A stretch of 64,000 bases of DNA, taken from positions 70 to 64,069 of the forward strand of contig CAIYZD010000133.1 of assembly GCA_903930585.1 (NCBI GenBank), in the 5' to 3' direction. Within the stretch, counting starts at the first letter, position 1. Every line of letters begins with the position of its first letter. Below the pieces are notes generated by a model. It was not told where the DNA came from. It ran no database searches and was given only the letters and a program-made list of their open reading frames with translations. The DNA comes from an uncultured Geobacteraceae bacterium (GTDB lineage: Bacteria > Desulfobacterota > Desulfuromonadia > Geobacterales > Pseudopelobacteraceae). A program made the translations under genes and the position numbers. Shown here piece by piece: positions 11,678 through 63,066 of the stretch.

Positions 11678-11682
11678 AATAG

Positions 11683-13789: not shown

Positions 13790-13817
13790 CAACTTCCCGC
13801 AAAAAAGGCGCTCTTGC

Positions 13818-16780: not shown

Positions 16781-16802
16781 GTCAAAGCAGAGGAAACATC
16801 CA

Positions 16803-19816: not shown

Positions 19817-19834
19817 ACACAAAAACGACAAGTA

Positions 19835-21463: not shown

Positions 21464-21677
21464 GGTGTCAGGTCACCGCTTTTCAACTGGTTGAATAAGT
21501 TGGCGAAAAGCATGTTTTCGCATGAGATGTAACGCCGTGATAAAAAAACGAATATCCCTGTATACAGAACCGACCCTCCTTCTGTCAAATCCAAAAAGGA
21601 TGGGGCGGTTGAATCACTTCATACTGAGGTCAAAGTGTGCTATATCTTGCCGTCACTCTGCAACTGAAGGAATCATC

Positions 21678-33089: not shown

Positions 33090-33111
33090 TCGTAAACGGC
33101 ATGGAGATTCT

Positions 33112-33477: not shown

Positions 33478-33522
33478 TAAAGAAGGCTATTCGTTACACG
33501 TTTCCGGATGTGGAGGTGATGT

Positions 33523-37035: not shown

Positions 37036-37053
37036 TAAATCCGGAAAACTGCC

Positions 37054-38728: not shown

Positions 38729-38844
38729 AGTCAGGGTTTCGGCTTAAAAGATTAACTCATCAATATATCTTGTATACTAGACATGTTGGAGCAATTCGTA
38801 CTCAGCTTTACATTCCGCTATAATGAAAAATGTGGAGGTACTTA

Positions 38845-41254: not shown

Positions 41255-42184
41255 TTACCTGGCGTAGTAACCGACACCCACCAGAAAGTTGCCTACCTTA
41301 CGTACAAAGGTATGCTTTTTCTCATTCTTGCTTGTCACCGGGTTACGCCAGACATAATCAAGCTCGCCTTGTCCCTTCGCTTTGACGATGGAAACCATCT
41401 CCTTGATAATCGGCTTGCCGGTGGGATCGGTCAGGGTTTGCGCGTCGCTGCCGACAAGACGCGGAGAAGCTCCATGGGCGCGAAAAAGTTTCTTGTCGAT
41501 ATCGATGACGAATACATACAAATCGTCCTCAATGTACTTGCCACCCAGATCATTAAATGCTGTAAATGCACTCTCGGGATCATTTTTTACCGCTTCCGAA
41601 GCCCTGTTCAGCATGTCTTTTGCCTGCTTGGCCGATGCCCGTGGGATGTAATACCCCACGGATAGTATTGCATCCCCAACTTTCTGGAAATAGGCGACCT
41701 TGCGTTCCACTTTGCGATCAACACGATTCAGCCAGCGGTACTCCACGGAACCGGAATTCTGGGACTTGGCAATATCCAGCATTTCCCGAAAGAACGGCTT
41801 TCCTTCCGCGTCACGCAGGTTGGTAATGTTGGTGCCGATCAGGGCCGATGATGATCCGCCACTCGACAGCATGACGCCATTCGTGTTGATCACATATACA
41901 TACAGATCGCCCTGGATGAATTCACCCTGGCGCATGAATGCGGCCAAAGCCAGCTCTTTTTTCTCCCGATAAGAGGCAACTGCACGATCAAGCAGTTCCT
42001 TGGCACGCTTGGCGTCATCGCGGCTGTCCGCTGCAGGTTCCGGTTTTGCCGCGGATTTTTCAGCGGCACAGACAATGCCGGAGAACATCGTGGAAAGCAG
42101 CAGGGATACAATAAAAGCCATACAAACGAAGCGGACAGTTCTTGCAAACGGATTGTTTTTTGATTCGATGAACATGTGATTCAC
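41255..42184 (-). CDS. Secreted or membrane-anchored protein made of two Cache-like (sCache_2-type) domains, with no output domain
   Basis: 309 aa with an N-terminal hydrophobic anchor. There are two similar halves: GDLYVYVINTNGVMLSSGG...VEYRWLN...KVAYFQKVGDAILSVGYY and DDLYVFVIDIDKKLFRAHG...LDYVWRN...KHTFVRKVGNFLVGVGYY. Confidence 0.7.
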   Translation of the reverse strand: MNHMFIESKNNPFARTVRFVCMAFIVSLLLSTMFSGIVCAAEKSAAKPEPAADSRDDAKRAKELLDRAVASYREKKELALAAFMRQGEFIQGDLYVYVINTNGVMLSSGGSSSALIGTNITNLRDAEGKPFFREMLDIAKSQNSGSVEYRWLNRVDRKVERKVAYFQKVGDAILSVGYYIPRASAKQAKDMLNRASEAVKNDPESAFTAFNDLGGKYIEDDLYVFVIDIDKKLFRAHGASPRLVGSDAQTLTDPTGKPIIKEMVSIVKAKGQGELDYVWRNPVTSKNEKKHTFVRKVGNFLVGVGYYAR

Positions 42185-42248
42185 CTCGGAGTTACAATTT
42201 TTTTATTCACGTCATCGCGCTGGCACGTTCGGCTTGTGCTGTGGCGTC

Positions 42249-44273
42249 CTATTTCTTAAAATCCGGTTTACGTTTTTCCAGGAAGGCATACACCCCTTCC
42301 TTGGAGGCATCGATACAGGAGATGTCACCGCTCCCCTGGTAGTTGATCTCCAGAGCTGCTTCCAGTGAACCGGCGGCTGCCGCCTGGTTAACGACCCGTG
42401 CCACGATGGACAGAGCCTCTTTGCTCAGAGCCATTTTGCCCGCAACCGGGTTTTCGGGTACGGTGAACTCGACAATATTGACCGGGGCATCGCTGATGCG
42501 CGGAACATTGCCGATGAGTCGGTTGACTTCGCTGATGGCGGCATCGATCATTTCAATGTAGCCGTTGGTAACCTGTTTGACGATGCCGATCTCCTGGGCC
42601 TCTTTGACGGTCAGGCGCTTGGCCGCGCCGATCATGGCGTTGAAGGTCTCGGAGGCGTGCGGCCATTTGCGGTAAGGAATAACCGCCCCACCCATGCCGG
42701 GCAGGATCCCCAGGGTGATTTCCGGCAGTTGGAAGAAGGCATCCTTGTCGGCTACCAGGCTGTGGCAGCGCAGGGCCACTTCAACACCGCCCCCCATGGC
42801 CAGACCGTTTACTGCGGCGACGACCGGCTTGTCCATCTTGTCCATGAAGTGCAGGACTTCCGAGTTGCCCCGGGCCAGATCCACCCCGGCGGTATGGTTG
42901 TCGATGGTGGCAATGAAGCCGTTGATGTCGGCTCCGGCGCAGAATGCCTTGGTGCCGTAACCGGTGATGACGAAGCCTTTAACAGCCGGATCGTTGGCCC
43001 CTTTTTTCAGTTCGGTGAGAATCTCGCTGCAGGTACCGCCTCCCAGTGAGTTGGCGACCTGGGGACGACGGATTGTGATGATCCGTACCCCTTCCTTGTC
43101 ATCCACCAGGATGTCACGGGAGAAGTTCAGGTAGTCGGCAATCGGTCGTTTGGCACGGGGGAAACCGGGACGCTCATTATTGAAAGCGGCCATGATGCGC
43201 TCCACTTCCCGGGTGCCCATCTCTTCCATGATGTCGAAGACACCTTTCTTGAAGCCCAGGGCGATCAGGCTGCCGAAGTTCAGGTCTTCACGGGTACCGA
43301 TGGTACGGTCGGCGATGTCGAAACATTGGGAGAAGACCAGACCGATCATGCGATCACGGATCCATTCCTTGAGGTCTTCAGGTACGTCGATTCTGGTGCC
43401 CGGTTTGGCCACGTTCCACTTATCGACGGACAAGAGGACCGGTGAAGGGGCATAGCATGCCCGCTCGGCGGTGCGGCGCAGTTGTGATTCATAGGTAATC
43501 GGGTTGCCGCCGGCCATGTTGAGGACGAAGAAGGGGCCGGCGCCGACCCACTCTTCACAGACGGAGTCGACCTGGTAGGTGGTTGCTTTGTCCACCAGGT
43601 AGGCGGCTTCGTTGGTCCAGTTCTCAAAGACGCGGTTGAGCAGGAAGGAGAAGACGTTATCGGTGACGACCGGTGCTTTGCCGGTGTTGGCGAAGAACCA
43701 GATCAGATAGTTGAGCAGTTCCCGGCTGGCTCCTTCCCAGTTGATTACTTCCACGGCCATGCTGCGCCAGGCCGGGGCAAAGAAGTGGGTGATGGTGGAG
43801 CGCTCGGGGTGTTTCATGCCACTGAAGATCTGCTGGGCCGGGATTCCGCTGGTGTTGGAGGTCAGGACGCATCTTTCGTCGACAATCTCTTCCAACTGAG
43901 CGAAGATCTTCCGCTTCAGGGGCAGACTTTCGGTGGCTGCTTCAATGACCAGTCCGCAGTTTTTAAGCTGGCTGTAGTCGGTGGTGTAGACGATGTTGCC
44001 CAGGATCTGGTCGGCTTCAGCCTGGGTCATCTTCCGGCGGTCGAGCCCTTTCTGGGCGTAGGATTGAAAACGCTTTTCGGCTTTCTTGAGCGGTTCCTCA
44101 GCCACGTCCACCAGATAGAGTTTCTTGTCCGGTGCCCCGGTCCTCAGGTAGTAGGCGATGTCCGGGCCGATATGGCCGGCGCCGATGACCGCCATTTCGT
44201 CCGGGATGGGACGGTCGGTCTGGACCAGGTAAGGGTTGAAGTAGGATGGGTAGAGTTTCTTTTCAGCGGCCAT
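42249..44273 (-). CDS. Fused 3-hydroxyacyl-CoA dehydrogenase / enoyl-CoA hydratase
   Basis: 674 aa with an N-terminal NAD-binding HAD domain (VIGAGHIGPDIA) and a C-terminal crotonase fold (KAFCAGADI, VAAVNGLAMGGG). Confidence 0.85.
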   Translation of the reverse strand: MAAEKKLYPSYFNPYLVQTDRPIPDEMAVIGAGHIGPDIAYYLRTGAPDKKLYLVDVAEEPLKKAEKRFQSYAQKGLDRRKMTQAEADQILGNIVYTTDYSQLKNCGLVIEAATESLPLKRKIFAQLEEIVDERCVLTSNTSGIPAQQIFSGMKHPERSTITHFFAPAWRSMAVEVINWEGASRELLNYLIWFFANTGKAPVVTDNVFSFLLNRVFENWTNEAAYLVDKATTYQVDSVCEEWVGAGPFFVLNMAGGNPITYESQLRRTAERACYAPSPVLLSVDKWNVAKPGTRIDVPEDLKEWIRDRMIGLVFSQCFDIADRTIGTREDLNFGSLIALGFKKGVFDIMEEMGTREVERIMAAFNNERPGFPRAKRPIADYLNFSRDILVDDKEGVRIITIRRPQVANSLGGGTCSEILTELKKGANDPAVKGFVITGYGTKAFCAGADINGFIATIDNHTAGVDLARGNSEVLHFMDKMDKPVVAAVNGLAMGGGVEVALRCHSLVADKDAFFQLPEITLGILPGMGGAVIPYRKWPHASETFNAMIGAAKRLTVKEAQEIGIVKQVTNGYIEMIDAAISEVNRLIGNVPRISDAPVNIVEFTVPENPVAGKMALSKEALSIVARVVNQAAAAGSLEAALEINYQGSGDISCIDASKEGVYAFLEKRKPDFKK

Positions 44274-44322
44274 GGGTTCTCTCCTTGATGATTGAATACG
44301 ATATATGCGTCTCGATATGGTT

Positions 44323-45513
44323 TTAGTTCACCTTGATTACGATTGATGCGGCGGTGTCACCGGCGGCGCAACCGGAGAAGAGCAGGTAGCCGCCACCTTT
44401 TGCGGCCACCTCCTCGATCCCTTCGATCATCAGACGGGCGCCGGTAGGCGCCTGGGGATGGCCGTATATCAATGAGGAGCCGAAGTTGTTCATGCTGTTA
44501 ACATCCAGACCGAGGGTTTTCGCCATGGCGATGTCGTTGGCGGCAAAGGGGTTATGCGTCTTGACCGCTTTTACATCAGCCACTTTTATGCCGGCCCGGT
44601 CGAGCGCCATCTGGGCGGACGGGGCGACGGCGGCGGCCATATAGGCTTTTTTCGTGCGGGCGTAGCCGAAGGAGAGAAGCTGGATTTCGATGTTCGGGTC
44701 GGCGCTCAGTTCGCGCGCTTTGTCCCGGGTAGTTACCGAAACCCCGCAGTTGCCGTCGGCCGGGAAGGTCTGAGCGCCGAAGGTGTGGACGCCGTCCGGG
44801 AGGACGGGACGCAGGCCGGCAAGTCCTTCCGCCGTGGTCGGCATGACCCCTTCATCGGCTTCAACGGTGATGGTTTTCTTCTTGGATATCTGTACTTCGA
44901 CCGGGAACATGTAGCGTTTCTGGAATTCACGGTCGTTGGCCAGGGCGTCCTGGTACTGTGCGTAGCGCCTGAGGGTGAGTTCATCGCACTGTTCGCGGGT
45001 GATGCCGGCCTCTTTGCTGACGTTCTCGGCGGTCTGGATCATCGCCTGGCCGGCCCATGGATCTTTGTTAACGTTGTCCATGAACCAGTCTTCGGCGATC
45101 GGTTTGCCGCCGGGGCCGTTCGGGTTCGGCCAGATGGCGTGCGGGCCGTTGGAGCAGCGGTCGGCCAGCAGGCACCAGCTGTTTTCAAACATGCCGGTTT
45201 CAATCCCCTGGCCGGCCTGGTAGAGGGAGAAGGCAGAGGTGGAGCAGGCCTGGGTGATGAGGACGCCGGGGGAGTTCACGGCGCCCAGCATGGCGGCGGC
45301 CCAGGGACCGGTGTAGAACCAGGACTGCTGGTAGACGGTACTGCCGACAAATACGTATTCGATGGCCATCGGGTCCCACCCTTTGCTCTCCAGAAAACGT
45401 TTGGAGGTGGCAGCGCCGAGGGCGATGGCGTTCTCATTGGCCAGTGTCCCCTGCCATTTGACAAACGGGGTGCTGTAGTAGCCGCGATAGGGGATGAATG
45501 CTTTGGTTAACAT
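44323..45513 (-). CDS. Thiolase-family acyltransferase
   Basis: 396 aa with a thiolase N-terminal active-site region (TQACSTSAFSL) and a C-terminal region (NNFGSSLIYGHPQAPTG...GCAAGD). Confidence 0.8.
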   Translation of the reverse strand: MLTKAFIPYRGYYSTPFVKWQGTLANENAIALGAATSKRFLESKGWDPMAIEYVFVGSTVYQQSWFYTGPWAAAMLGAVNSPGVLITQACSTSAFSLYQAGQGIETGMFENSWCLLADRCSNGPHAIWPNPNGPGGKPIAEDWFMDNVNKDPWAGQAMIQTAENVSKEAGITREQCDELTLRRYAQYQDALANDREFQKRYMFPVEVQISKKKTITVEADEGVMPTTAEGLAGLRPVLPDGVHTFGAQTFPADGNCGVSVTTRDKARELSADPNIEIQLLSFGYARTKKAYMAAAVAPSAQMALDRAGIKVADVKAVKTHNPFAANDIAMAKTLGLDVNSMNNFGSSLIYGHPQAPTGARLMIEGIEEVAAKGGGYLLFSGCAAGDTAASIVIKVN

Positions 45514-45662
45514 GGATGTTCCTCCTCGTGTAAAATAAATGGCATAAACTGGTATTATATCATGGTATGATTACCCGTAAAAAAGATATTGTCAATCAGG
45601 CACCTTTTCAATACAGAGTACCCAATTAGGTACCCTGAACCGTCTACCGGAGATTTGGGAAA

Positions 45663-46076
45663 ATGGAAGAGAGTTATCAACCACAAGGAAAATTCCAGTA
45701 CCGGGGCAAGGAGTACTACTGTCCGGTGGACGTGACCCTGGCCATTATTGGCGGGAAATGGAAACCGGCCATCCTTTGGCACCTCAAAAAAAGAACCATG
45801 CGCTTTTCCGAATTGCAGCGCAGATTTCCCGACACGACACGAAAAATGCTGACCCAGCAACTGCGGGAACTGGAAGCTGACGGGGTGATCCAGCGTAAGG
45901 TCTATGCCGAGGTACCTCCACGGGTGGAATACTCCTTTACCGAAAAGGGGCATACTGTTAATAACGTTCTTATTTTGATGTACGACTGGGGAAAACAATT
46001 TTTACAGGAATCAAACGCAAACGTCTACACAGCCGAGATGCCGCCATCCACCACCAGTTCCGTACCAGTAATGTAG
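45663..46076 (+). CDS. HxlR-family winged-helix transcriptional regulator
   Basis: 137 aa. CPVDVTLAIIGGKWKPAILWHL....MRFSELQRRFPDTTRKMLTQQLRELEADGVIQRKVY..VPPRVEYSFTEKG is a textbook HxlR core. The 3' end overlaps the convergent SDR gene by 52 nt. Confidence 0.88.
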   Translation: MEESYQPQGKFQYRGKEYYCPVDVTLAIIGGKWKPAILWHLKKRTMRFSELQRRFPDTTRKMLTQQLRELEADGVIQRKVYAEVPPRVEYSFTEKGHTVNNVLILMYDWGKQFLQESNANVYTAEMPPSTTSSVPVM

Positions 46077-46837
46077 CAGGCTGCATCGGAGGCCAGAAAG
46101 TGCACCGCCGCGACAACATCGGAGGTTTCGCCGATGCGCCCCAGCGGCGTGCTGCTTTTGATGAAATTCAGCCCCTGCTCGAAGTCACCGCCGAAGATCA
46201 GGTTGGCAACGTCCTGAACAGCCTTGTCCCCCATCTCGGTCCTGGTAACACCGGGGTGAACGGAGTTCACCCGGATATTCATAGCGCCGAACTCCGCCGC
46301 CACAGCCTTGCTGAACAGGCGCACCGCCCCCTTTGATGCACAGTAGCCGGCGAAACCGGGGACACCTACCAGACCCGCCACCGATGACAAGTTGATGATG
46401 GACCCGCCTCGGCCTTCTCTACCTTCGCTTGTCATGGCGGCAAGGGCATGTTTTGTCCCCAGAAAAACTCCCTCGACATTAATAGAGTGCATGCGCCGCC
46501 ACTCCTCGACGCTCATCTGAAGCAGCGGCTTGGCAATCTCGATACCGGCATTATTGATCAGTACGTCCAGCCCGCCGAATGCCTCCAGGGTGGCGGCAAT
46601 TCCCCGCTGCCAATCCTCCTCGCGGGTCACGTCCAGTGTGCAGAAAGCCGCTTCCCTCCCCTGTTCACAGATGGAACGGGCCACATCCTTACCGAGCTCA
46701 TCAAGAATATCGGCCAGCATTATTTTTGCACCGGCCTGCGCCAGAGACCGAGCGCAATCCAGGCCGATCCCCCGGGCAGCACCGCTGATTAAAACAACTT
46801 TGCCATTAACATCGAAGTTTGTTTTTTGTTTCGTCAT
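46025..46837 (-). CDS. Short-chain dehydrogenase/reductase
   Basis: 270 aa with GAARGIG (TGxxxGIG), NNAG and a YCASK catalytic motif. Confidence 0.88.
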   Translation of the reverse strand: MTKQKTNFDVNGKVVLISGAARGIGLDCARSLAQAGAKIMLADILDELGKDVARSICEQGREAAFCTLDVTREEDWQRGIAATLEAFGGLDVLINNAGIEIAKPLLQMSVEEWRRMHSINVEGVFLGTKHALAAMTSEGREGRGGSIINLSSVAGLVGVPGFAGYCASKGAVRLFSKAVAAEFGAMNIRVNSVHPGVTRTEMGDKAVQDVANLIFGGDFEQGLNFIKSSTPLGRIGETSDVVAAVHFLASDAACYITGTELVVDGGISAV

Positions 46838-46883
46838 ATCCGTATCTCCTTCCGCCCTCGCGGTTCAACATGTCAACGTTCCG

Positions 46884-47999
46884 TCAGTATCCGACCGGCT
46901 CCAGACACCAGAGTCCCGCCTCCTGCATGGCGCTGATCAGTTCACGGTGTCCAAAAGCAGCCGTTGCCGGTTGGTAGCCGACCTTTTTCAGACGCCCGAT
47001 AAGGATGCGCCGGCAGGCCTCAGCAATCAGAAATCCGGTCTGCAGGTACCCCGAAGTACCGTAAAACGCCAGGTGCTTACCAACCGTATTGCCACGGGCA
47101 AAAACAGAAATCATACAGCGCTGGATAGAAGGATCTTCCTTGATCAGCGCATCGGGGTCCGGCGACATGGCGCGTCCCCAGGCGTTGGTGATTTCTTCCA
47201 TCTCCGCCGCGGTTCTGGTTTTTGCCAGTTCGTGATATTCGACTATGCGCCCGTGGACCAGATTGACCACTTCCCGGCTCGTGAACGAGACGGCAACCTT
47301 GCAATTGCGCACACGGCTGTCGTTTTCAAACCAGATCGGCTCAAAACCACCCCCCCAGGGTACCGCCGCCTGAATCTGATGGTTGCCGGGGACGAACACA
47401 TCGAACTTGGCCAGCGGATCCCACTGTTTCATGACACCGTCTTCCTTGTAGAGCTGCGGCAGGCAACACATGCGCAGGAACGACAGGGTCGATGCGGGGG
47501 TGGGATTGCCACGCGGGGCATAGAGGATGTCCAGACTGTCGATGCCGGGTGTTTCGAGCGCCACTTCCGCAGCAACCATACCGGTAACCCACATGGCGGC
47601 ACACTCGGAAATGGCGACGGTATTATTGGCGGCGAACTGGCCGCCATAGGTGTCACGCAGCATGAGGGTGTAGTCCGGTTCTCCCGTTGTATCAAGGTAG
47701 TGACACTTGTTGGCAAGTGCCGCCTTGATGACCGGCTCCGCCAACTGGCCGAACGGACCGACGACGTTGGCGACAACCTGCGCGCCTTCGAATAATTTTG
47801 TGAGTGCAGCTTCCGTATGTTCACAGGCCACAATGTCCACGACATGATTGCCGGGCACTTTTTTAAGTTCAGCTACTATTCTGTCGCGACTGCGTCCCGC
47901 TGCCACAAACGGAATACCTTCCCGTGTGAGGTATTCGGCGATTATCTTGCCGGTATAGCCGCTGATGCCGTAGACGACGAGTGGGTATTTGCTGGCCAT
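46884..47999 (-). CDS. Saccharopine-dehydrogenase-like NAD(P)-binding protein (trans-acting enoyl-reductase-like)
   Basis: 371 aa. The N-terminal Rossmann fold (LVVYGISGYTGKIIAEYL) resembles the saccharopine dehydrogenase NADP-binding family. The function is not assignable. Confidence 0.6.
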   Translation of the reverse strand: MASKYPLVVYGISGYTGKIIAEYLTREGIPFVAAGRSRDRIVAELKKVPGNHVVDIVACEHTEAALTKLFEGAQVVANVVGPFGQLAEPVIKAALANKCHYLDTTGEPDYTLMLRDTYGGQFAANNTVAISECAAMWVTGMVAAEVALETPGIDSLDILYAPRGNPTPASTLSFLRMCCLPQLYKEDGVMKQWDPLAKFDVFVPGNHQIQAAVPWGGGFEPIWFENDSRVRNCKVAVSFTSREVVNLVHGRIVEYHELAKTRTAAEMEEITNAWGRAMSPDPDALIKEDPSIQRCMISVFARGNTVGKHLAFYGTSGYLQTGFLIAEACRRILIGRLKKVGYQPATAAFGHRELISAMQEAGLWCLEPVGY

Positions 48000-48011
48000 G
48001 ATGTATCTCCT

Positions 48012-50857: not shown

Positions 50858-50917
50858 GGATATATCTCCTGGTTATCCTATTGATAAAACAGAGTCTTTC
50901 ATAGACCTATGCTTCAC

Positions 50918-51691: not shown

Positions 51692-51756
51692 GATACCCCC
51701 TTCAGCGTAGTGATCTGTCCTTGTTTTGTTCATCTGCCACCTTCATTCAGCCCGAC

Positions 51757-52992: not shown

Positions 52993-53129
52993 GGTAATAT
53001 CCCCTTTACTGTTCTAGTTATTGCGCAGGCGCGCAGATGATTTTCCTATTTGCTGTGACTGTCCACATTCCTAATAATCGGGGCAGAGCCATCCTGCCCC
53101 TTGAATTGCATTGAAGGAGACACTGCGTG

Positions 53130-55634: not shown

Positions 55635-55653
55635 TTCCGTTCTCCCTGTTTTA

Positions 55654-56697: not shown

Positions 56698-56822
56698 AGC
56701 TTCTCCCGGTAGTTCTTTCCGGCAGGGTGGGCACTCGCATCACCCTGCCGGCATTACTGTATTGAAATTTTCTTGCGGCGTTGTCTACGCGTCAATCGCC
56801 GGAAGCGCTCAAGATTGACATC

Positions 56823-58175
56823 TTACCGAACCCCTCCGGAGGCAATCGATTCAGGCGTCCAGTCACTTGCAGGGCGCTTCTGGGTATAGCGGAAGCCACC
56901 TCTGTTCTCAGCCGGCCAGGCGTTAAGGAAGTATTGCTCGCTGATCAGGTCATAGCCGCCCTGAATATCGTTCATCGGGGCAGGAACTTCGTAGGCCGGT
57001 GTTATATAGGCAAAGCTCACCCGGAACAGTTGACCGCGGGCGTCATAGGCATCACTGGCCACAGCAACCCAGCTGTCCTCATCCAGATAAAATACCCGTT
57101 TGCTGTAGAGGTGCCGTTTGCCCGGCTTTAAGGTGGCTTCAACCACCCAGACGCGATGCTTTTCCCAGCGCACAACATCAGGGTTCAGGAAGTGCGGTTT
57201 AAGCAAATCCTCATTTTTGGTAAAAAAAGCCATTTTGTAGTCGTTATACGGAATCATTAACTCCTTCTTGCCGATGATCTTGAAGTTGAAGCGCTCCATG
57301 GAGCCGCTGAACAGATAGAGATCGTCCCACGTGGCGGCGCCGCCAACCGTAGCGTTGGGGGTGTCGAACGAGAGGTCCGGCGCGAGTTTCACCCGTCTCT
57401 GACCGGGCAGGTACTGCCAGGCACGACGGGCATTTTTTCCGAAGTCGATCGGATCGACAATCAGAAGCGCCTCTCCAGCACGACGGGGTGGACCTTCATA
57501 GGTGATTCTAAGTCCATAGTAATCTTTGGTGTCAGGCTTTGCCGGGTCGTAATAGGCGTACTCCAGACTGACATTCCCTTCCGCCTGCATGGTCGCGCGA
57601 CCGGACCGGTCTACGGTAAAGGCCCTGTAATTTACTTCATTGGCCAGACCGTTGAAGCGCAATTGGTGGTTCCACATTGCTTCATTGCCTGTTTGCGGTA
57701 TGGGGAATGGGTACCCCGCATGGGCGCCGGTGAGCGACAGTCCTTCATTGGTTGTCTTTGCCGTAGTCGCATGCTTTACCGTGTTATCCAGCACGTACTT
57801 GGGAAAAGCCGCCGTACGATGGGTCTTGTAGACATCGATACGATAGGTCGGGTACTTTTTCATCAGGGCTTTGGCGCCTTCGGTAAGTTCCCCTGCATAC
57901 TTATCCATATTTTTTGCGTTTATCGAATAAAGCGGCTTCTCACCTTCAAACGGGTCCGGTCGTATCCCGGAACCCTTCTTGTAGCTAGCCGGCGGCGTGG
58001 TCAGTCCGCCACTGTATTCGGGAATCGAGCCATCCTTGTTGCCGGCCTTTTCAGCGCCGACCAGTGTCAGGTTTTTACCGAGTTGCGAAGCCTTATCGGC
58101 AGAGACGGCCCCGAGGGCTACTCCCGCATATGTCAGCGTTAAGCCGACGGTAATGAGACAGTTGCGTATAGTCAT
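56823..58175 (-). CDS. DUF1329 protein (LolA-like, periplasmic or outer-membrane associated)
   Basis: 450 aa with a signal peptide. The N-terminal LTLVGAEKAGNKDGSIPEYSGG is typical of DUF1329. Confidence 0.75.
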   Translation of the reverse strand: MTIRNCLITVGLTLTYAGVALGAVSADKASQLGKNLTLVGAEKAGNKDGSIPEYSGGLTTPPASYKKGSGIRPDPFEGEKPLYSINAKNMDKYAGELTEGAKALMKKYPTYRIDVYKTHRTAAFPKYVLDNTVKHATTAKTTNEGLSLTGAHAGYPFPIPQTGNEAMWNHQLRFNGLANEVNYRAFTVDRSGRATMQAEGNVSLEYAYYDPAKPDTKDYYGLRITYEGPPRRAGEALLIVDPIDFGKNARRAWQYLPGQRRVKLAPDLSFDTPNATVGGAATWDDLYLFSGSMERFNFKIIGKKELMIPYNDYKMAFFTKNEDLLKPHFLNPDVVRWEKHRVWVVEATLKPGKRHLYSKRVFYLDEDSWVAVASDAYDARGQLFRVSFAYITPAYEVPAPMNDIQGGYDLISEQYFLNAWPAENRGGFRYTQKRPASDWTPESIASGGVR

Positions 58176-58191
58176 GATTAACCTCCGTTTC

Positions 58192-59901
58192 TTAGAATGT
58201 GGTTTTCAGTGTCAAGGAAAGCATGTCGCGGTCCTTGAGCAGTGCGAAGATGTCTCCGGCTCCGGTGTGTTGTCCCGGAGCTGCCCCGCCCGGTCCGGGG
58301 ATTCCACCGGTCGAATCCGTGCCGTAGGTGCCGAAGAAGCTCGCATAGGTGAGATCGACCTTGTACTTGGCAAAAATATCAAAGGAGAGACCGGCACTGT
58401 ACGAACCATTGGCGTCGGCGCCGCCACCGGAAACCGCAGATGTGCCGTAAATACCGGATGCGATGCTGAGAGGCATGGTCAGGTCAACCCCAGGGAAGAC
58501 CTGAAACCATTGCGGGGCAAAATTCAGGGCAGCAGTGACGTTGTCACGTGTTACACGGTCCACACCGGAATAGCCATTGCGACCGAGAAAGTAGTCTTGA
58601 CCCTGGGTTACACGGTCCCAACGGCTGTAGGTGAACTCAGCCAACCAGGAACCGGCATCGAACACCGGTGTCTTGGGCAGCAATCCAAGGAAATTTATCA
58701 GTGCATGTATGGTGTTGCCGCGAGCACCGGCGGTATCGCCCGAACCGGGGACTGCGGGGGCACCGGGAACGCCGACCACTATGCCCGACAGGCTCGCCAG
58801 CGTCATGTTCTTGCGATAGGAAACTTCAGCCCCGACACTGACTCCCAGGATATTTTTCGCCAGACTGATGCCGTACAGATCGATGTTGTCGGCATAGGCA
58901 AAACGGTAAGTCGGACCGGCGTGACTGGCATCAACCAGCAGATGTGGCATCTTGTCGGAGAAATTGCGATAGTAGAACCCGACCGTTCCATCCAGCCATT
59001 CCGGATTCCAGCGGGCCGAAACACCCCAGTCACGGGCCTGCTTCGGTGTTATGTCACCACCATTCCTGATTGGACCACCGGGAGTCCACAAGGATTCACC
59101 GCTGTTCAGGTACGGGTCGGCAAACCCCAGATAGCTACCTCCCTCAGGAAAGGTATTCGATTCCCATTGCAGAAAATATTGACCGGCAATGGTGAGAGAC
59201 TTAATGGGTTGAACCTGAACCGATACCTGGTTCAGCGGACGGAATATCTCTTTCAGCTCGACACCGGGCATCGCCAGAGCCTTGCCGAGGTCGAGCGGGG
59301 ACTGGCCGGCGGATATGCCGTTCGCACCGCCATAGGGAAGAAAGCTCTCGCCCCAGTACACCGTATGTCGGCCAACACGCATATTGACCGGGACTTCGCC
59401 GACCTGGACTTTGCCAAAGGCGAACGCATCCAGCAGTTCACCGTTCACGCCGCCGAAACGGTCCTTGGTGTAGCCGTTCAATCCAACAGTCGGCACACCA
59501 TTTACAAGGTGGTTTGAAGTGTTGTTTGCTGTAGTGGCCTTGTTGTCCAGGGTATCCCGGTATCTCTGGTCGTACCATGAGGCGGCGCTCAACCGGACCC
59601 CATAGTTCTTCTGGTAAACGACATCAAATTCGGAGAGGACGTCCAGGCGGTTCGAGACAATACCCACATTGAAATTGCGATCGCCGTCATCATTCTGCGG
59701 ACTTTTGAGAATATCCGGGTTCTGGCCGCGAAGACGTTGCGCCAATGTATAGCGCAGGGTGTTGTCCAGATTAATCTTCACATCATCGTTACCGGTCGGA
59801 ATTACAAATGCACCGGCATCAGCGTATAATGCCAAAACCGACGCCAGCGTTACGGCCGTACTGCATACACCACACTTTCGTACCAGCTCATACATCCTCA
59901 T
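58192..59901 (-). CDS. DUF1302 protein (putative outer-membrane beta-barrel)
   Basis: 569 aa with a signal peptide and an aromatic C-terminal residue (..LKTTF). The alternating beta-strand pattern and LDNTLRYTLAQRL are typical of DUF1302. Confidence 0.75.
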   Translation of the reverse strand: MRMYELVRKCGVCSTAVTLASVLALYADAGAFVIPTGNDDVKINLDNTLRYTLAQRLRGQNPDILKSPQNDDGDRNFNVGIVSNRLDVLSEFDVVYQKNYGVRLSAASWYDQRYRDTLDNKATTANNTSNHLVNGVPTVGLNGYTKDRFGGVNGELLDAFAFGKVQVGEVPVNMRVGRHTVYWGESFLPYGGANGISAGQSPLDLGKALAMPGVELKEIFRPLNQVSVQVQPIKSLTIAGQYFLQWESNTFPEGGSYLGFADPYLNSGESLWTPGGPIRNGGDITPKQARDWGVSARWNPEWLDGTVGFYYRNFSDKMPHLLVDASHAGPTYRFAYADNIDLYGISLAKNILGVSVGAEVSYRKNMTLASLSGIVVGVPGAPAVPGSGDTAGARGNTIHALINFLGLLPKTPVFDAGSWLAEFTYSRWDRVTQGQDYFLGRNGYSGVDRVTRDNVTAALNFAPQWFQVFPGVDLTMPLSIASGIYGTSAVSGGGADANGSYSAGLSFDIFAKYKVDLTYASFFGTYGTDSTGGIPGPGGAAPGQHTGAGDIFALLKDRDMLSLTLKTTF

Positions 59902-60213
59902 CTAACACCTCCTTGCAAGTTGTTTACTGCTCATACGTGGAATAACAAACACATCCTCATCCAGTAACGGTTTTTTGCCCTGGTTTATCTCTCCCTTCAT
60001 TTTATTTACCTTTTCCCCATCTGCTCATCCATGGCAAAGGTTACGCTGTTTTAAAATTGACAACGGAACAACGTTTTATTCTCTTAAAATCACTTATACG
60101 GAATGTAATGATGTTTTAAATCGTCCAACAGGACAGTTTATAAAAACAAATCAAAATTTATCCGGACGAATGCCCGTCTGAATAGACAGGTATCCGGCAG
60201 CCCACATGAAATA

Positions 60214-63066
60214 ATGAGTACTTCATGGATAAACCGGAGACGAAACAGGTCCCCGGATCAACGAAAAACACGTTTACAATCGCATAGAACTGCGTTTAAA
60301 ATGTGCCGCATGGATACAATCGATAAATTGCCCGTAAAAAAATCTCCACTCAGGCGTCTCCTGCAATCGAAGTTGACCCCACCTATCGGCAGTCGCAGAC
60401 TGGTGTCACGCACGCGTATCGTCAGTTGGCTGCAGTCCTCCGAGCATGCCCGGCTGATCATGTTGCGCGCTCCGGCCGGATTCGGCAAAACCACCTTGAT
60501 GGTGCAATTGCTGATGCAACTGCGGAATCAGGGGATTCAAACCGCATGGCTGACACTTGACGAAGGGGATAACGATCTCGGACAATTTCTTACGTATCTG
60601 ATTGCCGCCATTGAAAAGGGCATACCAGGGTTCGAGCGGGATGCCCAGGAGACGGGTCATATCGGCCTCGGGCTCAATCCGACCGGAGTGCTGTTATACC
60701 TGATAGACCGCATATCAACCTTCGAAGCCCCTTTCACCATCTTTTTAGACGACTTCGGAGCACTGCACTCTCCGGAGGCGCTTGAGCTCGTCCGGCAACT
60801 CTTGCAGCACCTTCCCCACGGAAAAAGAATTATCATCTCCCTCAGACATGTGCCGGACCTCAGTCTCGGCAGACTTCGGGCACAAGGCGAGCTTGTGGAT
60901 ATAGACCTGGAAGGACTGCGCTTCTCTCGTGAGGAAACAGCGGAATTTATTAGTCAGACACAGGGAATGGAACTGGATGAAAGCGGCGTAGAATACCTCT
61001 ACCAAACAACCGAAGGGTGGGTCGCAGGCCTGCAGCTTTTCACCCTCTCCTCGCTCTGGCGGGATAACAAGATAAATAGAAGCCAGACTTTTTCATCGGC
61101 CTTTTACAATATCTCCGAATATCTGGCTGAAGACGTACTCACCCGTCAGCCTGAAAACGTTCAGTCATTTCTTCTTCGCACCAGCATACTGAACCGCCTC
61201 TCCGGCTCTCTTTGCAATGCCCTTACCGGACAATCAGACGGGGATATGATGCTCACCTATCTGGAGAAACATAACCTCTTCCTTATCCCGCTGGATGAGG
61301 ACCGGAGCTGGTATCGTTTCCACAGTCTCTTTGCCAAGTTTTTGCAGAAGCAGCTTGACCGCCAGGGAAACGACGTTCACATAGAACTGCACCGCGCCGC
61401 CTATGACTGGTATGCCGCATCCGGCGAGGCTATTGAAGCCGCTAACCATGCCATGCTGGCCGGCGCGACGGAACTTGCCGCACAGCAGTTGGAAAACTCT
61501 TCTTTATCGCTTTCAAAAAACGGCATGACCACCACGGTCGCCGAATGGGCGGAGCGTTTGCCGCAAGAGGTACTTGACCAGCATCCGGAACTGCTTCTCA
61601 GTTACATATATGCACTGATATTCGCTGAGCGCTACGAAAAGGCCCATGAAATGCTCGACCGGCTTACAAACAATGTGCATCGGCTAAAAAACGAAACCTA
61701 CACCCAGGATCTGCGCATAGCACGGGGATTTATCCTGATGAGCCAGGAAAGGATGAAGGAGTTCGAGTGCGTTATTTTGGAAGGCTTGACGGCATATGAC
61801 CCGGCAGCAAACGATTCCCATACCAGGTTTTTGCCTGTACTCCTGAACATGGCCGGGATGCTGAAACTGACCGTCGGGAGGTTGGAAGAGGCACTTAATA
61901 TTATCTGGGAGGGTGCGCGGCTGATCAATCCGTATAGAGATGAAGTACTGGTTTACAATAAATATTTTGAAGGGCGCATCTATCTGGCGCAGGGGAAGCT
62001 TCAAGAGGCACTCTTGCTTACCCGCTCCATTCTTGAAGAGAAGGCCTACGGCCCAAGCCACTATGCGGCTGGCGGAACAGCCGTGGCGGTTCTGGAAGCC
62101 GAAGTACTCTACGAGAAAAACGACCTGGAAAATTCCGAGAAGCTGCTTACCGCGTACATCAGCATACTGCCGACCGTAATCGCGGTGGAGGCTATGATTG
62201 TCGGCTTCAGACTCCTGGTCCGTATTCGGCGCGCCAAGGGAGATGCAAACGGGGCCCGGCATTTCCTGAACGATTTGGAACGGATCGGCATCCAGCGTGG
62301 AATTCCGCGAGCCTGCGCATCCGCACGCCAGGAACGTATTCGAATTGCATTGCAAGACGGCGAAACCGGATATGCTCTCAAAATTTCCGGTGACTATACG
62401 GACCAACCCATTTGGGACAGGTTCAATGGCTACAAAATGGCGGGCAACGACCCTGAAACACCGGAAATTACCCGGATTCGGTTGATGATTGGGCAAAACC
62501 GGCACAAAGAAGTATTGGAGCCTTTGAAAAGTGAGCTAAAAAAAGCGGAGTCTTCGGGGTATTTTCGGCAGACACTCCTCTTACGTATCCTTTTGGCAAA
62601 AGCCTGTGAGGGTTACGGGGAGCGGAGTTTAGCTATCAAGTATGTGAAGGAGGCCATACTATTGGCGCAAGATGAGGAATTCATCCGTTGTTTCCTGGAT
62701 GAAGGTGAGCCAGTGCCGAAACTGGTTTACGAACTTTACCGAATTACCATTGAGGACGGTCACGCAGGTGACGGAAGTATCTCAATAGAATATGTCGAAA
62801 AGCTCATGCGCGCCATGGGTCTTGTCATCCCCTCTCCAGACAGGACTTCTGAAGATGACTCATCCCTCCTTGACCCATTGACAAACCGTGAGAAGGAAAT
62901 TTTGGAAAAACTGGCCCTGGGTTTTTCAAACTATGAACTGGCCGACAAGATGTGCATCTCCGTTAACACTATCCGTTACCACTTGCGAAACATATTCTCA
63001 AAACTTGGCACAAAAAGTCGCGCACAGGCAATTGTCATGGCCCGCCGTCTGGGACTCATTAAATAG
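60214..63066 (+). CDS. MalT-like STAND ATPase with a LuxR-type HTH (large ATP-dependent LuxR regulator)
   Basis: It has a Walker A motif (LRAPAGFGKTTL), a long helical/TPR-like middle and a C-terminal LuxR HTH (LTNREKEILEKLALGFSNYELADKMCISVNTIRYHLRNIFSKLG). The true start may be the ATG at 60301 or 60310. Confidence 0.85.
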   Translation: MSTSWINRRRNRSPDQRKTRLQSHRTAFKMCRMDTIDKLPVKKSPLRRLLQSKLTPPIGSRRLVSRTRIVSWLQSSEHARLIMLRAPAGFGKTTLMVQLLMQLRNQGIQTAWLTLDEGDNDLGQFLTYLIAAIEKGIPGFERDAQETGHIGLGLNPTGVLLYLIDRISTFEAPFTIFLDDFGALHSPEALELVRQLLQHLPHGKRIIISLRHVPDLSLGRLRAQGELVDIDLEGLRFSREETAEFISQTQGMELDESGVEYLYQTTEGWVAGLQLFTLSSLWRDNKINRSQTFSSAFYNISEYLAEDVLTRQPENVQSFLLRTSILNRLSGSLCNALTGQSDGDMMLTYLEKHNLFLIPLDEDRSWYRFHSLFAKFLQKQLDRQGNDVHIELHRAAYDWYAASGEAIEAANHAMLAGATELAAQQLENSSLSLSKNGMTTTVAEWAERLPQEVLDQHPELLLSYIYALIFAERYEKAHEMLDRLTNNVHRLKNETYTQDLRIARGFILMSQERMKEFECVILEGLTAYDPAANDSHTRFLPVLLNMAGMLKLTVGRLEEALNIIWEGARLINPYRDEVLVYNKYFEGRIYLAQGKLQEALLLTRSILEEKAYGPSHYAAGGTAVAVLEAEVLYEKNDLENSEKLLTAYISILPTVIAVEAMIVGFRLLVRIRRAKGDANGARHFLNDLERIGIQRGIPRACASARQERIRIALQDGETGYALKISGDYTDQPIWDRFNGYKMAGNDPETPEITRIRLMIGQNRHKEVLEPLKSELKKAESSGYFRQTLLLRILLAKACEGYGERSLAIKYVKEAILLAQDEEFIRCFLDEGEPVPKLVYELYRITIEDGHAGDGSISIEYVEKLMRAMGLVIPSPDRTSEDDSSLLDPLTNREKEILEKLALGFSNYELADKMCISVNTIRYHLRNIFSKLGTKSRAQAIVMARRLGLIK

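Follow-up and report, generated by a model that had tools for sequence, protein, structure and literature searches.

Envelope cassettes of the AmeABCD and PP_0765-0766 type have been described before. Deletion of ameABCD lowers tolerance of monoterpene hydrocarbons as well as growth on them; the alcohol, the aldehyde and the acid still support growth as before (PMC6394551). In P. putida, mutants in PP_0765, PP_0766, PP_0767, PP_2018 and PP_2019 do not grow on Tween 20; laurate and myristate, given as free fatty acids, do support their growth. Butyl stearate also fails to support the PP_0765, PP_0766 and PP_2018 mutants (the count given is four of five, with PP_0767 and PP_2019 not included). 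Price et al. put forward export of a cell-wall component as the role of the cassette; cassette mutants in Shewanella and P. stutzeri have pleiotropic phenotypes. Earlier publications also associate the cassette with LuxR regulators and catabolic genes.

The window analyzed here is a 64,000-nucleotide stretch of a contig from an uncultured Geobacteraceae bacterium. All ORFs and domains named in an initial annotation of this DNA were present (Table 1), and the orientations given to the regulator, divergent at one end, and to the AOR-MoaD gene, convergent at the other, were borne out. Its count of fourteen minus-strand genes out of fifteen had to be corrected, as 59901-41255 contains 14 genes, 13 of them on the minus strand. 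The overlap at 49622-49625 was also recovered and depends on a TTG start; on identical metagenome contigs, gene callers set the thiolase/ligase overlap at 1 or 4 nt. The arrangement from LuxR to DUF5938 was found at 98-100% identity on contigs of four independent metagenome assemblies, so that chimeric assembly can be excluded for this part. For the RND, DUF1329 and HAD/ECH proteins, members of the same 90%-identity clusters had one common largest-contig size (87,938 bp), which suggests that all three may lie on one contig.

Table 1. Predicted genes and control region of the locus, with the matches or observations behind each assignment.
Feature	Position	Strand	Evidence
MalT-family STAND/LuxR transcription activator, 950 aa	60214-63066	+	STAND/TPR_MalT/GerE; divergent
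Divergent control region, regulator/DUF1302, 312 bp	59902-60213	.	read directly
DUF1302 protein, AmeA-like predicted outer-membrane beta-barrel	58192-59901	-	PF06980, E 1e-106
DUF1329 protein, AmeB-like, LolA-like, periplasmic	56823-58175	-	PF07044, E 2e-135, and LolA_like
BNR/Ycf48-like beta-propeller, AmeC-like, periplasmic	55654-56697	-	PSII_BNR, BNR
RND permease, HAE3 type, AmeD-like	53130-55634	-	MMPL
Acyl-CoA dehydrogenase (ACAD)	51757-52992	-	four ACAD domains
Classical SDR (SDR2)	50918-51733	-	adh_short
SCP2-type (SCP-x-type) thiolase	49622-50857	-	Thiolase_C_1
AMP-forming acyl-CoA ligase	48012-49625	-	AMP-binding, AMP-binding_C
DUF5938 NAD(P) oxidoreductase, saccharopine-reductase fold	46884-47999	-	Sacchrp_dh_NADP and DUF5938
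Second SDR (SDR1), final gene of core operon	46025-46837	-	adh_short
HxlR-type regulator	45663-46076	+	HxlR, E 1e-34
Degradative thiolase, native backbone	44323-45513	-	Thiolase_N/C
3-Hydroxyacyl-CoA dehydrogenase/enoyl-CoA hydratase (HAD/ECH) fusion	42249-44273	-	3HCDH_N, ECH_1
Secreted protein, two sCache_2-like repeats, without output domain	41255-42184	-	sCache_2, dCache_2
W/Mo aldehyde:ferredoxin oxidoreductase (AOR) with fused ThiS/MoaD-like (WorX-like) C-terminus	38830-41169	+	AFOR_N, AFOR_C, ThiS; convergent

Envelope cassette and regulator

The window RND was 62-85% identical to the RNDs of 80 cassettes in Geobacter, Pseudomonas and Burkholderiales. The four-gene order starting with DUF1302 was kept in 71 of these 80 loci, and their flanks differed greatly. 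RND pumps are exporters; the best NCBIfam match of this one was TIGR00921 (HAE3), under the cut-off of that model, and a crude hydropathy scan gave 11 hydrophobic segments and two large loops. Signal peptides were present in the DUF1302 protein (at its N-terminus), in the Ycf48-like propeller and in the DUF1329 protein, in which the lipobox cysteine is absent.

The regulator matched the Pfam TPR_MalT, GerE and NTPase models, and its best NCBIfam match was MalT (378 bits, under the cut-off of 537). Both its Walker A (GFGKTT) and Walker B (FLDD) motifs are intact. We propose that it is dedicated to the divergent operon. Inspection of the intergenic region between the two revealed short repeats and palindromes only, with no operator found. 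Promoter and terminator scans gave no excess over shuffled controls. A weak GC-rich hairpin (z -1.67) lies in the gap between RND and ACAD and could split the operon.

The acyl-CoA module and its recurrence with regulator and cassette

ACAD is the first gene of a conserved enzyme module, for which DUF5938 serves as marker gene. The nearest solved structures to ACAD were short- and medium-chain acyl-CoA dehydrogenases, and its orthologs in class A loci were 36-41% identical. SDR2 had R-specific alcohol dehydrogenases and hydroxysteroid dehydrogenases as nearest solved relatives, with orthologs of 54-59% identity in L097, L159 and L166. The best solved match of the SCP2-type thiolase was an SCP2-thiolase type-1 (6hsj, E 2e-63); it retains the nucleophile Cys and the GHP motif, and its active-site loop is a variant, HDAS instead of HDCF, which lacks the HDCF cysteine. 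This HDA[ST] form was kept in all class A orthologs; at the same loop BbsB has HDAF. The acyl-CoA ligase did not reach any NCBIfam equivalog.

The AF2 model of the DUF5938 oxidoreductase (pLDDT 92) was matched by Foldseek to carboxyspermidine dehydrogenase, lysine dehydrogenase and saccharopine reductase (TM 0.70-0.75, 14-18% identity), a predicted fold that points to amine/imine chemistry as much as to acyl-CoA chemistry. The family comprises 224 clusters at 50% identity (E<=1e-30), and identity among relatives falls from 89% to 59%, where the next ones belong to Beta/Gammaproteobacteria and actinomycetes. The minimal triad in class B loci is SDR-DUF5938-ligase. An enoyl-CoA hydratase was absent from the conserved module in every variant examined, and a simple β-oxidation reading may therefore be wrong.

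The initial annotation had linked the envelope genes, the β-oxidation-like set and the STAND-LuxR regulator functionally, and this link was supported by the recurrence of their adjacency. The ACAD-thiolase-ligase-DUF5938 set recurs with identities of 47-76% for the thiolase, the highest to orthologs from unrelated lineages, and of 47-62% for the ligase, whose orthologs always stood beside thiolase and DUF5938. Regulator, cassette and module occur together in at least four differing gene orders, including a conjugative plasmid and unrelated metagenome contigs. In the sister locus L085, the closest module-bearing relative, the module has the cassette and/or a MalT-LuxR neighbour, as here, and the SDR1 ortholog is 78% identical. 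L086 is ordered LuxR, then ACAD, SCPx, ligase, DUF5938, D1302, D1329, BNR and RND, and L112 is ordered BNR, D1302, D1329, reductase, ACAD, SCPx, ligase, DUF5938, then LuxR. In L091 the module is followed by RND, a BNR-like gene and a further ORF clustering with the DUF1302-like gene of L112. The conjugative plasmid of Pseudomonas sp. MPC6 carries D1302, D1329, YCF48, RND, MFS, hydrolase, LuxR, ACAD, thiolase, ligase and DUF5938. Regulator homologues (25-31% identity) flank the module in L086, L088, L093, L112, L153, L161 and plasmid pMPC6-328K, and a MalT-type regulator adjoins it in most loci having enough flank. Between L086 and the window the enzymes are 59-72% identical and the cassette proteins only 25-39%, a gap that fits either independent recruitment or a faster divergence of the cassette.

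The module also occurs with LuxR only and without the cassette in Cupriavidus, alone beside alkB-rubredoxin in Spirillospora, a Gram-positive actinomycete, beside a P450 and a luciferase-like oxidoreductase on a marine contig, and, on plasmids, beside hydrolases, PhaZ among them. It is missing from the two nearest cassettes in Geobacter (L001 and L002). As the adjacency is found in distant lineages and in several orders, it did not arise by chance in this genome alone, and the core at 46025-63066 is a real, recurrent unit of regulator, cassette and module.

The HxlR, second thiolase, HAD/ECH, Cache and AOR genes

The initial annotation had read the whole ~22 kb as one pathway, and in this form all sixteen genes would act together under LuxR control, from envelope traffic through aldehyde-to-acid oxidation by AOR and CoA activation to both β-oxidation sets. 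The genes do follow one another at short distances on the DNA, and the only hydratase of the region, missing from the conserved module, is carried by the HAD/ECH fusion of the second set. However, the array is broken by HxlR, which lies on the opposite strand, overlaps the 3' end of SDR1 convergently by 52 nt and diverges from the second thiolase gene over a 149-bp region. Both strands of this region carry promoter-like hexamers, and it holds a near-palindrome, GTACCCAATTAGGTAC, at 45618-45633. No HxlR homologue was found in any related locus. HxlR marks a separate transcription unit for the second thiolase and HAD/ECH, which also differ from the core in GC3 and GC3 skew (0.78 and -0.38 for the thiolase).

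HAD/ECH identity between the Geobacteraceae, Desulfuromonadaceae, Desulfobacteraceae and Deferrisomatales was 70-93%, and in other genomes the gene is part of CoA-transferase/ACAD operons that have no cassette. Its ortholog in Geobacter sp. AOG1 and in Desulfocicer is preceded by a 396-aa thiolase. This is a vertically conserved Desulfobacterota gene pair with its own HxlR here and other contexts elsewhere, and its place in the pathway was not upheld. In L085, the ~9.5 kb following DUF5938 contained no second thiolase, HAD/ECH, HxlR, Cache or AOR gene. On the side of a single pathway, one Desulfuromonadaceae contig has HAD/ECH but no accompanying thiolase, with DUF1302 and DUF1329 as a divergent pair a few kb off. 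The Cache protein, in whose translation a signal peptide and two repeats can be read, has an ortholog (65%) immediately after the RND gene in Geobacter sp. UBA698; the ortholog is part of the cassette in L002, so that the thiolase-HAD/ECH pair is flanked by two cassette-associated genes; no other homologue was found among the 80 cassette loci.

The AOR-MoaD protein ends in LAGG, and its gene, convergent, has its own upstream region. The family is conserved at 67-88% in Geobacterales and Aromatoleum. In related genomes its orthologs (85-86% identical) adjoin cofactor-maturation genes and neither cassette nor module, and in Geobacter sp. UBA698 the ortholog is ~38 kb from the cassette. AOR as a fixed step of the island is not supported by this; it is a native neighbour and no conserved partner of the core. 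At family level only, three Geobacterales loci do have other AOR paralogs no more than 10 kb from their cassettes, accompanied by aldehyde-producing enzymes: in L002 these are FAD-linked oxidases and an Fe-ADH, in L007 and L017 a quinohemoprotein amine dehydrogenase operon. An AOR link may hold. On balance, a single pathway of sixteen genes appears unlikely.

We consider it probable instead that three units with separable evolutionary histories make up a mosaic here, with a core of regulator, cassette and acyl-CoA module for a hydrophobic compound. This reading is based on the drop in DUF5938 identity, the native conservation of HAD/ECH and AOR, the distinct GC3 and the divergent HxlR promoter region.

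Proposed function and comparison with described systems

In the first unit (46025-63066), the activator would, by analogy with MalT, bind ATP and an inducer and then turn on the divergent operon. At the envelope, the cassette would deal with a compound that is very hydrophobic and probably non-ionic: DUF1302 and DUF1329 would see to its passage and transfer at the outer membrane, and RND and propeller would hold membrane and periplasmic levels under toxicity. The ligase may activate the compound, or its oxidised acid form, with CoA for a β-oxidation-like shortening round through ACAD, SDR and thiolase, with DUF5938 as the putative catalyst of NAD(P)-dependent redox chemistry at a non-standard position; in this genome the second unit may supply the hydratase. 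That unit (41255-46076) would contribute HxlR-controlled thiolase and HAD/ECH as ordinary, vertically inherited Desulfobacterota β-oxidation, and it also holds the predicted secreted double-Cache protein, whose sister-genome ortholog belongs to the cassette. The third, a stand-alone, native class I AOR with fused WorX, may feed acids to the ligase. We agree with the initial annotation that the substrate is not deducible.

Alternatively, the core might be biosynthetic, its enzymes making or remodelling a lipid that RND, LolA-like protein and barrel deliver to the outer membrane, for example by a reverse β-oxidation-like chemistry with a condensing thiolase, ketoreductase SDRs and a DUF5938 reductase. 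Saccharopine-dehydrogenase-family proteins include a mycobacterial trans-acting enoyl reductase, and lipid export is known for HAE3 and MMPL relatives such as HpnN. The module, without hydratase, has two reductase-type enzymes, and the proposal of Price et al. and the pleiotropic Shewanella and P. stutzeri mutants point the same way. We nevertheless give this little credence, as ACADs and AMP-forming ligases typically belong to catabolism, the published cassette phenotypes have to do with tolerating or growing on exogenous hydrophobic substrates, and the module has alkB-rubredoxin, P450 and PhaZ-type neighbours, including in a Gram-positive organism with no outer membrane to supply. That cassette and enzyme genes are functionally unconnected, brought together by chance or recent rearrangement, would agree with the variable cassette flanks, the module-free L001 and L002 and the cassette-free modules of Cupriavidus and Spirillospora, but is hardly credible given the recurrence in several orders and unrelated lineages and the usual presence of a MalT-type regulator.

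The mosaic reading with its recurrent core bears on the earlier view of this gene combination as the likeliest candidate for an undescribed system. That view may stand for the partner module, a widely shared but uncharacterised fatty-acid-type enzyme set: a full-text literature search for DUF5938 returned nothing, and no published description of the ACAD-thiolase-ligase-DUF5938 combination was found. It does not stand for the four-gene envelope cassette, which is of the published AmeABCD / PP_0765-0766 type, nor for the LuxR regulators and catabolic genes linked with it.

Gene map and flank of the locus

The ORF map and Pfam scans reproduced the gene list of the initial annotation gene for gene, with one correction: 14 genes rather than fifteen lie between 59901 and 41255. 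Thirteen of these 14 are on the minus strand, and neighbouring genes are separated by gaps of 12-137 bp or, at 49622-49625, share a 4-nt overlap. Contigs of four independent metagenome assemblies carry the arrangement from the LuxR gene to the DUF5938 gene with 98-100% identity, so it is not an assembly artefact. The remainder of the window carries ordinary chromosomal genes (chemotaxis, Mfd, UvrA, GlmU, MoeA and a type IV pilin cluster). The minor-pilin cluster, which includes a 1170-aa PilY1-like protein, forms a lower-GC stretch (GC 0.48-0.51) immediately upstream of the AOR-MoaD gene (AOR). Since none of the 16 proteins attained an NCBIfam equivalog cut-off, generic SDR subfamilies excepted, no specific enzyme names were obtained.

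The 22 kb had been regarded as one unit, a view that our data do not uphold: the second thiolase (Thl), the HAD/ECH fusion and AOR fall outside the core and form a native backbone. The best-supported reading is a mosaic, in which the core stands next to native HxlR-Thl-HAD/ECH genes, a cassette-associated Cache gene and a native class I AOR gene. The core itself is best read as a LuxR/STAND-controlled cassette of the AmeABCD type, fused to a conserved and apparently horizontally shared ACAD-SDR-thiolase-ligase-DUF5938 module.

Table. Positions of features in the window and in comparison loci.
Feature	Position	Strand	Description
Core	46025-63066		STAND/LuxR regulator, cassette and enzyme module
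STAND/LuxR regulator	60214-63066		Intact Walker A/B NTPase, MalT-type TPR region, GerE helix-turn-helix (Pfam)
RND-ACAD hairpin	53080-53100	minus	GC-rich, 8-bp stem (GGGGCAGG...CUGCCCC), within the 137-bp RND-ACAD gap
SCP2-type thiolase	49622-50857		Module thiolase
HxlR	45663-46076	plus	Divergent regulator gene
Near-palindrome	45618-45633		GTACCCAATTAGGTAC, hxlR-thiolase intergenic region
Thl	44323-45513		Second thiolase
HAD/ECH	42249-44273		Fusion protein
Cache	41255-42184		Secreted, two sCache_2-like repeats, no output domain
AOR	38830-41169		AFOR_N, AFOR_C and fused C-terminal ThiS/MoaD-like domain ending in GG (Pfam)
Minor-pilin cluster	31292-37557		Type IV pilus genes
L081 and L082 (window's population)	5110-7875 in each		Regulator called as two ORFs (464 and 442 aa)
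L002 (Geobacter sp. UBA698)	2161-18878		Cassette, Cache and AOR paralog
L017 (Desulfuromonadaceae MAG)	12515-22421		Cassette, amine dehydrogenase operon, AOR
L007 (Geobacter argillaceus)	12588-22442		ORF layout as in L017
L177 (Spirillospora)	2897-11083		PucR-like regulator between module and AlkB/rubredoxin
L172/L173 (pMPC6-328K)	NZ_CP034782.1, 117-161 kb		Cassette and module amid five class III aminotransferase genes, amidase, agmatinase, serine hydrolases and several MFS transporters

For the HAD/ECH fusion, identity is 70-93% across Geobacteraceae, Desulfuromonadaceae, Desulfobacteraceae and Deferrisomatales. A 395-396-aa thiolase precedes HAD/ECH in Geobacter sp. AOG1 and Desulfocicer, inside CoA-transferase/ACAD operons that have neither cassette nor module. 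On one Desulfuromonadaceae contig HAD/ECH occurs without the thiolase; a divergent DUF1302-DUF1329 pair lies a few kb away, and an XylR-type regulator stands in between. In the window, Thl and HAD/ECH have a distinct GC3 (0.75-0.78) and a GC3 skew of -0.34 and -0.38; the divergent HxlR gene precedes them across a 149-bp region with promoter-like hexamers on both strands. The near-palindrome in this region is a candidate HxlR operator. At the sister locus L085, the closest module-bearing relative, DUF5938 is followed by EthD, two SDR genes and a chemoreceptor gene; Thl, HAD/ECH, HxlR, Cache and AOR were all absent from the ~9.5 kb downstream of DUF5938.

In Geobacter sp. UBA698, the Cache protein belongs with the cassette: a 65% identical ortholog is encoded directly 3' of the RND gene, the sole such case among 80 cassette loci. 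The idea that Cache is a truncated chemoreceptor related to the L085 MCP was rejected, as the two share no similarity and the UBA698 ortholog is intact and of the same length.

Geobacterales, Deferrisomatales and Aromatoleum/Azoarcus share the AOR fusion (~774 aa) with 67-88% conservation, and its orthologs adjoin YqeC and MobA-like cofactor genes. It combines AFOR_N and AFOR_C with a ThiS-like module, no Fe-S/flavin subunit genes being adjacent, as in class I WOR/AOR enzymes. In Geobacter sp. UBA698, an 85% ortholog lies ~38 kb from the cassette beside cofactor-maturation genes, and ~6 kb downstream of it come a sigma-54 activator, then a CoA-transferase, two transporter genes and a thiolase; a second ortholog (86%) has neither cassette nor module nearby. 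Other AOR paralogs of Geobacterales, 23-30% identical, lie no more than 10 kb from cassettes associated with aldehyde-generating enzymes. At L002, two FAD-linked oxidases (of the family containing p-cresol methylhydroxylase) stand before cassette and Cache, and an Fe-ADH, an acetate-kinase-like protein, an SDR and an AOR paralog come after them. At L017, the cassette is followed by a complete quinohemoprotein amine dehydrogenase operon (alpha subunit, radical-SAM maturase, propeller, peptidases, ABC exporter) and then by AOR, with a histidine kinase and a sigma-54 response regulator as regulators; because the ORF layouts match, L007 very likely holds the same genes. These paralogs make a sequence of envelope cassette, aldehyde-making enzyme and acid-making AOR plausible in Geobacterales. 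The aldehyde oxidation step of the initial annotation is plausible as general logic, but the AOR of the window is not a member of the conserved unit. It may well serve the ligase.

No match was returned by tRNA and Rfam scans of the window, nor was any integrase, transposase or IS seen among its ORFs scanned with Pfam, and a classical integrative element or mobile genomic island was rejected on the lack of tRNA, integrase or IS. Codon and GC differences were modest. A homologous unit is carried by pMPC6-328K, a conjugative plasmid of Pseudomonas sp. MPC6. Promoter and terminator scans gave counts not above shuffles (19 vs 14.4±3.8 and 25 vs 19.3±4.4), and folding of the RND-ACAD, SDR1-downstream and Cache-AOR gaps revealed no significant terminator (z -1.0 to -1.7). 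The RND-ACAD hairpin (z -1.67, not significant against shuffles) could be an attenuator or stabiliser between transport and enzyme genes.

The envelope cassette and its probable regulator

Pfam scans identified four co-directional genes in the AmeABCD order, namely DUF1302, DUF1329, a COG4447/Ycf48-like BNR protein and an RND permease. By inspection, the first three proteins have hydrophobic N-termini indicative of signal peptides. The best NCBIfam match of the RND protein was TIGR00921 (HAE3), with 142.6 bits against a cut-off of 351.9. A crude hydropathy scan counted 11 hydrophobic segments and two loops (~residues 61-243 and 468-642), to be set beside the 12 TMS and two large periplasmic loops of the HAE3 family.

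When the RND protein was searched against one genome per species, 80 loci were recovered, with 62-85% identity in the best segment. The closest were in Geobacter MAGs, G. argillaceus and Desulfuromonadaceae, the others mainly in Pseudomonas and Burkholderiales. The four genes kept an identical order in 71/80 loci, with varying flanks: within 10 kb of the cassette we counted a CoA ligase in 26 of the 80 loci, an SDR in 21, a MalT-LuxR in 14, an SCP-x-like thiolase in 13, an ACAD in 7 and DUF5938 in 2.

The regulator has the architecture of MalT-family STAND proteins, with Walker A (GFGKTT) and Walker B (FLDD) motifs, a MalT-type TPR sensor and a C-terminal LuxR/GerE helix-turn-helix. MalT was its best NCBIfam match, yet at 378.3 bits the score is below the NF003420 equivalog cut-off of 537, so the protein is MalT-like in architecture and not MalT itself. 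In the LuxR-DUF1302 intergenic region, only short, chance-level repeat matches were found. The regulator is split into two ORFs on two of the four metagenome contigs of the window's population and is elsewhere a single ORF of 921-950 aa; the split is either a frameshift/nonsense variant, with loss of the regulator, or an assembly error.

The conserved enzyme module

A class A module (ACAD, SCP2-type thiolase, ligase, DUF5938, often with an SDR) was defined from gene-context look-ups, a plasmid search and a metagenome scan based on a DUF5938 alignment; its thiolases and ligases are 47-76% and 47-62% identical to those of the window. The synteny search proposed in the initial annotation bore out the core, since cassette, module and LuxR recur together in several arrangements. 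DUF5938 homologs are 89% identical in the sister population and then at most 59%, in Steroidobacteraceae, Burkholderiaceae, Cupriavidus, Pseudomonas and Spirillospora.

Table. Arrangements of the class A module (a slash separates the LuxR gene from the others, as recorded).
Locus	Arrangement
Window and L085	Module behind cassette
L086/87	LuxR / ACAD, SCPx, ligase, DUF5938, D1302, D1329, BNR, RND
L112	BNR, D1302, D1329, CurA-like reductase, ACAD, SCPx, ligase, DUF5938, DUF3237 / LuxR
L091	Module, RND, BNR-like gene, further ORF clustering with the DUF1302-like gene of L112
pMPC6-328K (conjugative, Pseudomonas sp. MPC6)	D1302, D1329, YCF48, RND, MFS, serine hydrolase, LuxR, hypothetical, ACAD, thiolase, ligase, DUF5938
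Cupriavidus	Module with LuxR only; no cassette
Spirillospora	Module without cassette, directly beside AlkB-type hydroxylase and rubredoxin

At L086, the enzymes are 59-72% identical to those of the window and the cassette proteins 25-39%, which fits either independent recruitment or a faster divergence of the cassette. Spirillospora, being Gram-positive, has no outer membrane; its AlkB-type hydroxylase contains all four histidine boxes (HEMGHR, EHNRGHH, NYLEHYGL, LQRHSDHH). Elsewhere the module neighbours alkB-rubredoxin, a P450 with a luciferase-like oxidoreductase, a CurA-like enone reductase, serine hydrolases with PhaZ, or class III aminotransferases, all of which point to neutral, hydrophobic aliphatic or alicyclic substrates and name no single one. 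The amine/ester theme around the plasmid copy may be relevant to the saccharopine-reductase fold of DUF5938. Soil bacteria and plasmids commonly carry a more distant class B module (SDR, DUF5938 and ligase, in some cases also thiolase), and the DUF5938 family as a whole comprises ~224 clusters at 50% identity (E<=1e-30).

The module thiolase is closest to the SCP2-thiolase type-1 structure 6hsj (E 2e-63). Reading of the translation and alignment to 6hsj located the motifs NACASG, KGHP and AHNAGG, and the protein has the type-1 loops: a CxS loop with the nucleophilic cysteine and a histidine loop of the GHP type. A C-terminal CxG cysteine is lacking. In place of the acid/base cysteine loop HDCF, it carries HDAS (residues 302-307), and HDA[ST], mostly HDAS, was found in every class A ortholog; the DUF35-dependent BbsB (7pxp) and 7yvy have HDAF. 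Among other thiolases, class B members keep HDCF, and more distant ones beside Pseudomonas cassettes have HDQS. A DUF35/BbsA-type partner for the thiolase was rejected, as the ORF map contains neither such an ORF nor a gap large enough for one.

An enoyl-CoA hydratase (ECH or MaoC) was absent from the conserved module in every locus examined. A textbook turn of beta-oxidation is thus not encoded by the conserved genes: ligase, ACAD, hydratase, 3-hydroxyacyl-CoA dehydrogenase and thiolase are not found together, and the island has its sole hydratase in the adjacent HAD/ECH fusion, whose linkage to the module is not conserved. The model of the DUF5938 protein (pLDDT 92) matches, over its whole fold, saccharopine reductase, carboxyspermidine dehydrogenase and lysine dehydrogenase (TM 0.70-0.75, 14-18% identity), enzymes of NAD(P)-linked amine, imine or aldehyde chemistry in a fold family said to include enoyl reductases. 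SDR2, the SDR encoded between the ACAD and thiolase genes, resembles R-specific alcohol dehydrogenases and hydroxysteroid dehydrogenases. PDB sequence searches yielded generic short- and medium-chain relatives for ACAD and, for the ligase, no match at E<=1e-40.

Functional reading and comparison with known systems

Our literature searches found no paper mentioning DUF5938 and none on the gene combination of the module. The suggestion of a candidate undescribed system holds in part: hydrophobic-substrate clusters with an AmeABCD-like cassette and LuxR are known, whereas this partner module and its conserved coupling have no earlier description in the literature that could be searched. We infer the direction of transport, the substrate and the DUF5938 reaction. 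It is possible, although we consider it unlikely, that LuxR, the AmeABCD-like cassette and ACAD/SCP2-thiolase(HDAS)/ligase/DUF5938 form a horizontally mobile, unrecognised system for acquiring and activating neutral aliphatics. Its substrates would be compounds like alkane-derived products, esters, ketones or long-chain amines. DUF5938 would replace or bypass the hydratase step by a new reaction, the candidates being an NAD(P)-dependent amine/imine or an enoyl/keto-acyl-CoA conversion on the saccharopine-reductase fold, and the long-sought way in through the outer membrane would be formed by the DUF1302/DUF1329 pair. If true, this would assign functions to three DUF families together.

DUF1302 and DUF1329 are without a solved structure or an experimentally established function, and the cassette is linked to growth or tolerance on monoterpenes and fatty esters. 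As the locus shows, one specific conserved enzyme module accompanies the cassette and a MalT-type regulator in Geobacter-like bacteria, in uncultured lineages and on a Pseudomonas plasmid. A concrete handle on the functions of DUF1302, DUF1329 and DUF5938 comes from the cultured Pseudomonas sp. MPC6 together with a small set of substrate classes. For a Geobacter-like organism, the module is an accessory capacity whose closest relatives outside the lineage are in aerobic Proteobacteria and actinomycetes, which suggests horizontal acquisition of a route for the anoxic use of hydrophobic compounds.

The regulator shares NTPase, TPR sensor and helix-turn-helix with E. coli MalT and differs in its sub-cut-off score and its unrelated target operon. 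Class I tungsten oxidoreductases consist of a large subunit without further redox subunits and an optional ThiS-like WorX, which in a 2026 classification adjoins some of them as a separate protein (PMC13328260). The window AOR has the same AFOR_N/AFOR_C large subunit and ThiS/MoaD-like module ending in GG, but WorX is fused at the C-terminus instead of separately encoded, and adjacency to the island is not conserved. As for the thiolase, the nucleophilic cysteine and GHP loop are common to it and peroxisomal SCPx/SCP2-thiolase type-1 (6hsj being the closest), and BbsB of the benzylsuccinate-degrading BbsAB also has an alanine replacing the HDCF cysteine. It differs from both in its HDAS loop, neither HDCF nor HDAF, in lacking an SCP2 domain and a DUF35/BbsA-like partner gene in the island, and in belonging to a conserved module without hydratase.

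In P. putida, growth on Tween 20 needs PP_0765/0766, the LuxR PP_0767 and the BNR/RND pair PP_2018/2019, and PP_0765/0766 and PP_2018 are also required on butyl stearate, whereas none of these genes is required on free fatty acids; an esterase function was proposed (Thompson et al. 2020, bioRxiv 10.1101/2020.07.04.188060). Price et al. found the four cassette genes to be cofit and proposed export of a cell-wall component. DUF1302/DUF1329 are conserved in 629/635 P. aeruginosa strains in one survey, a 2026 survey again co-located DUF1302 with DUF1329 and LuxR regulators, and the cassette or the pair also occurs in aromatic and steroid catabolic clusters. As in the window, PP_0765/0766 (DUF1302/DUF1329) are under a LuxR-type regulator near acyl-CoA ligase and fatty-acid genes; in P. 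putida, however, the cassette is split over two loci (PP_0765-0767 and PP_2018/2019) and the ACAD-thiolase-ligase-DUF5938 module is not reported.

The module of DUF1302, DUF1329, COG4447 propeller and RND permease, the last putatively of the HAE3 type, is the already known AmeABCD cassette type. In Castellaniella defragrans, AmeABCD is a tetrapartite HAE3-RND system within a monoterpene island, and deletion mutants tolerated monoterpene hydrocarbons less well and grew less on them, whereas growth on the corresponding alcohol, aldehyde and acid was unaffected (Puentes-Cala & Harder 2018, PMC6394551). The two cassettes are alike, by family and order, in their four proteins (with HAE3 as the putative family of the window's RND permease), in the signal peptides of the first three, and in being embedded in a catabolic cluster of an anaerobe adjoining CoA ligase and ACAD-type genes. 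Their partners differ, with mrcABCDEFGH and geoA/geoC in C. defragrans and ACAD, SDR, SCP2-thiolase, ligase and DUF5938 in the window, whose host is a Geobacter-like member of the Desulfobacterota with a cassette-associated secreted Cache protein in its lineage.
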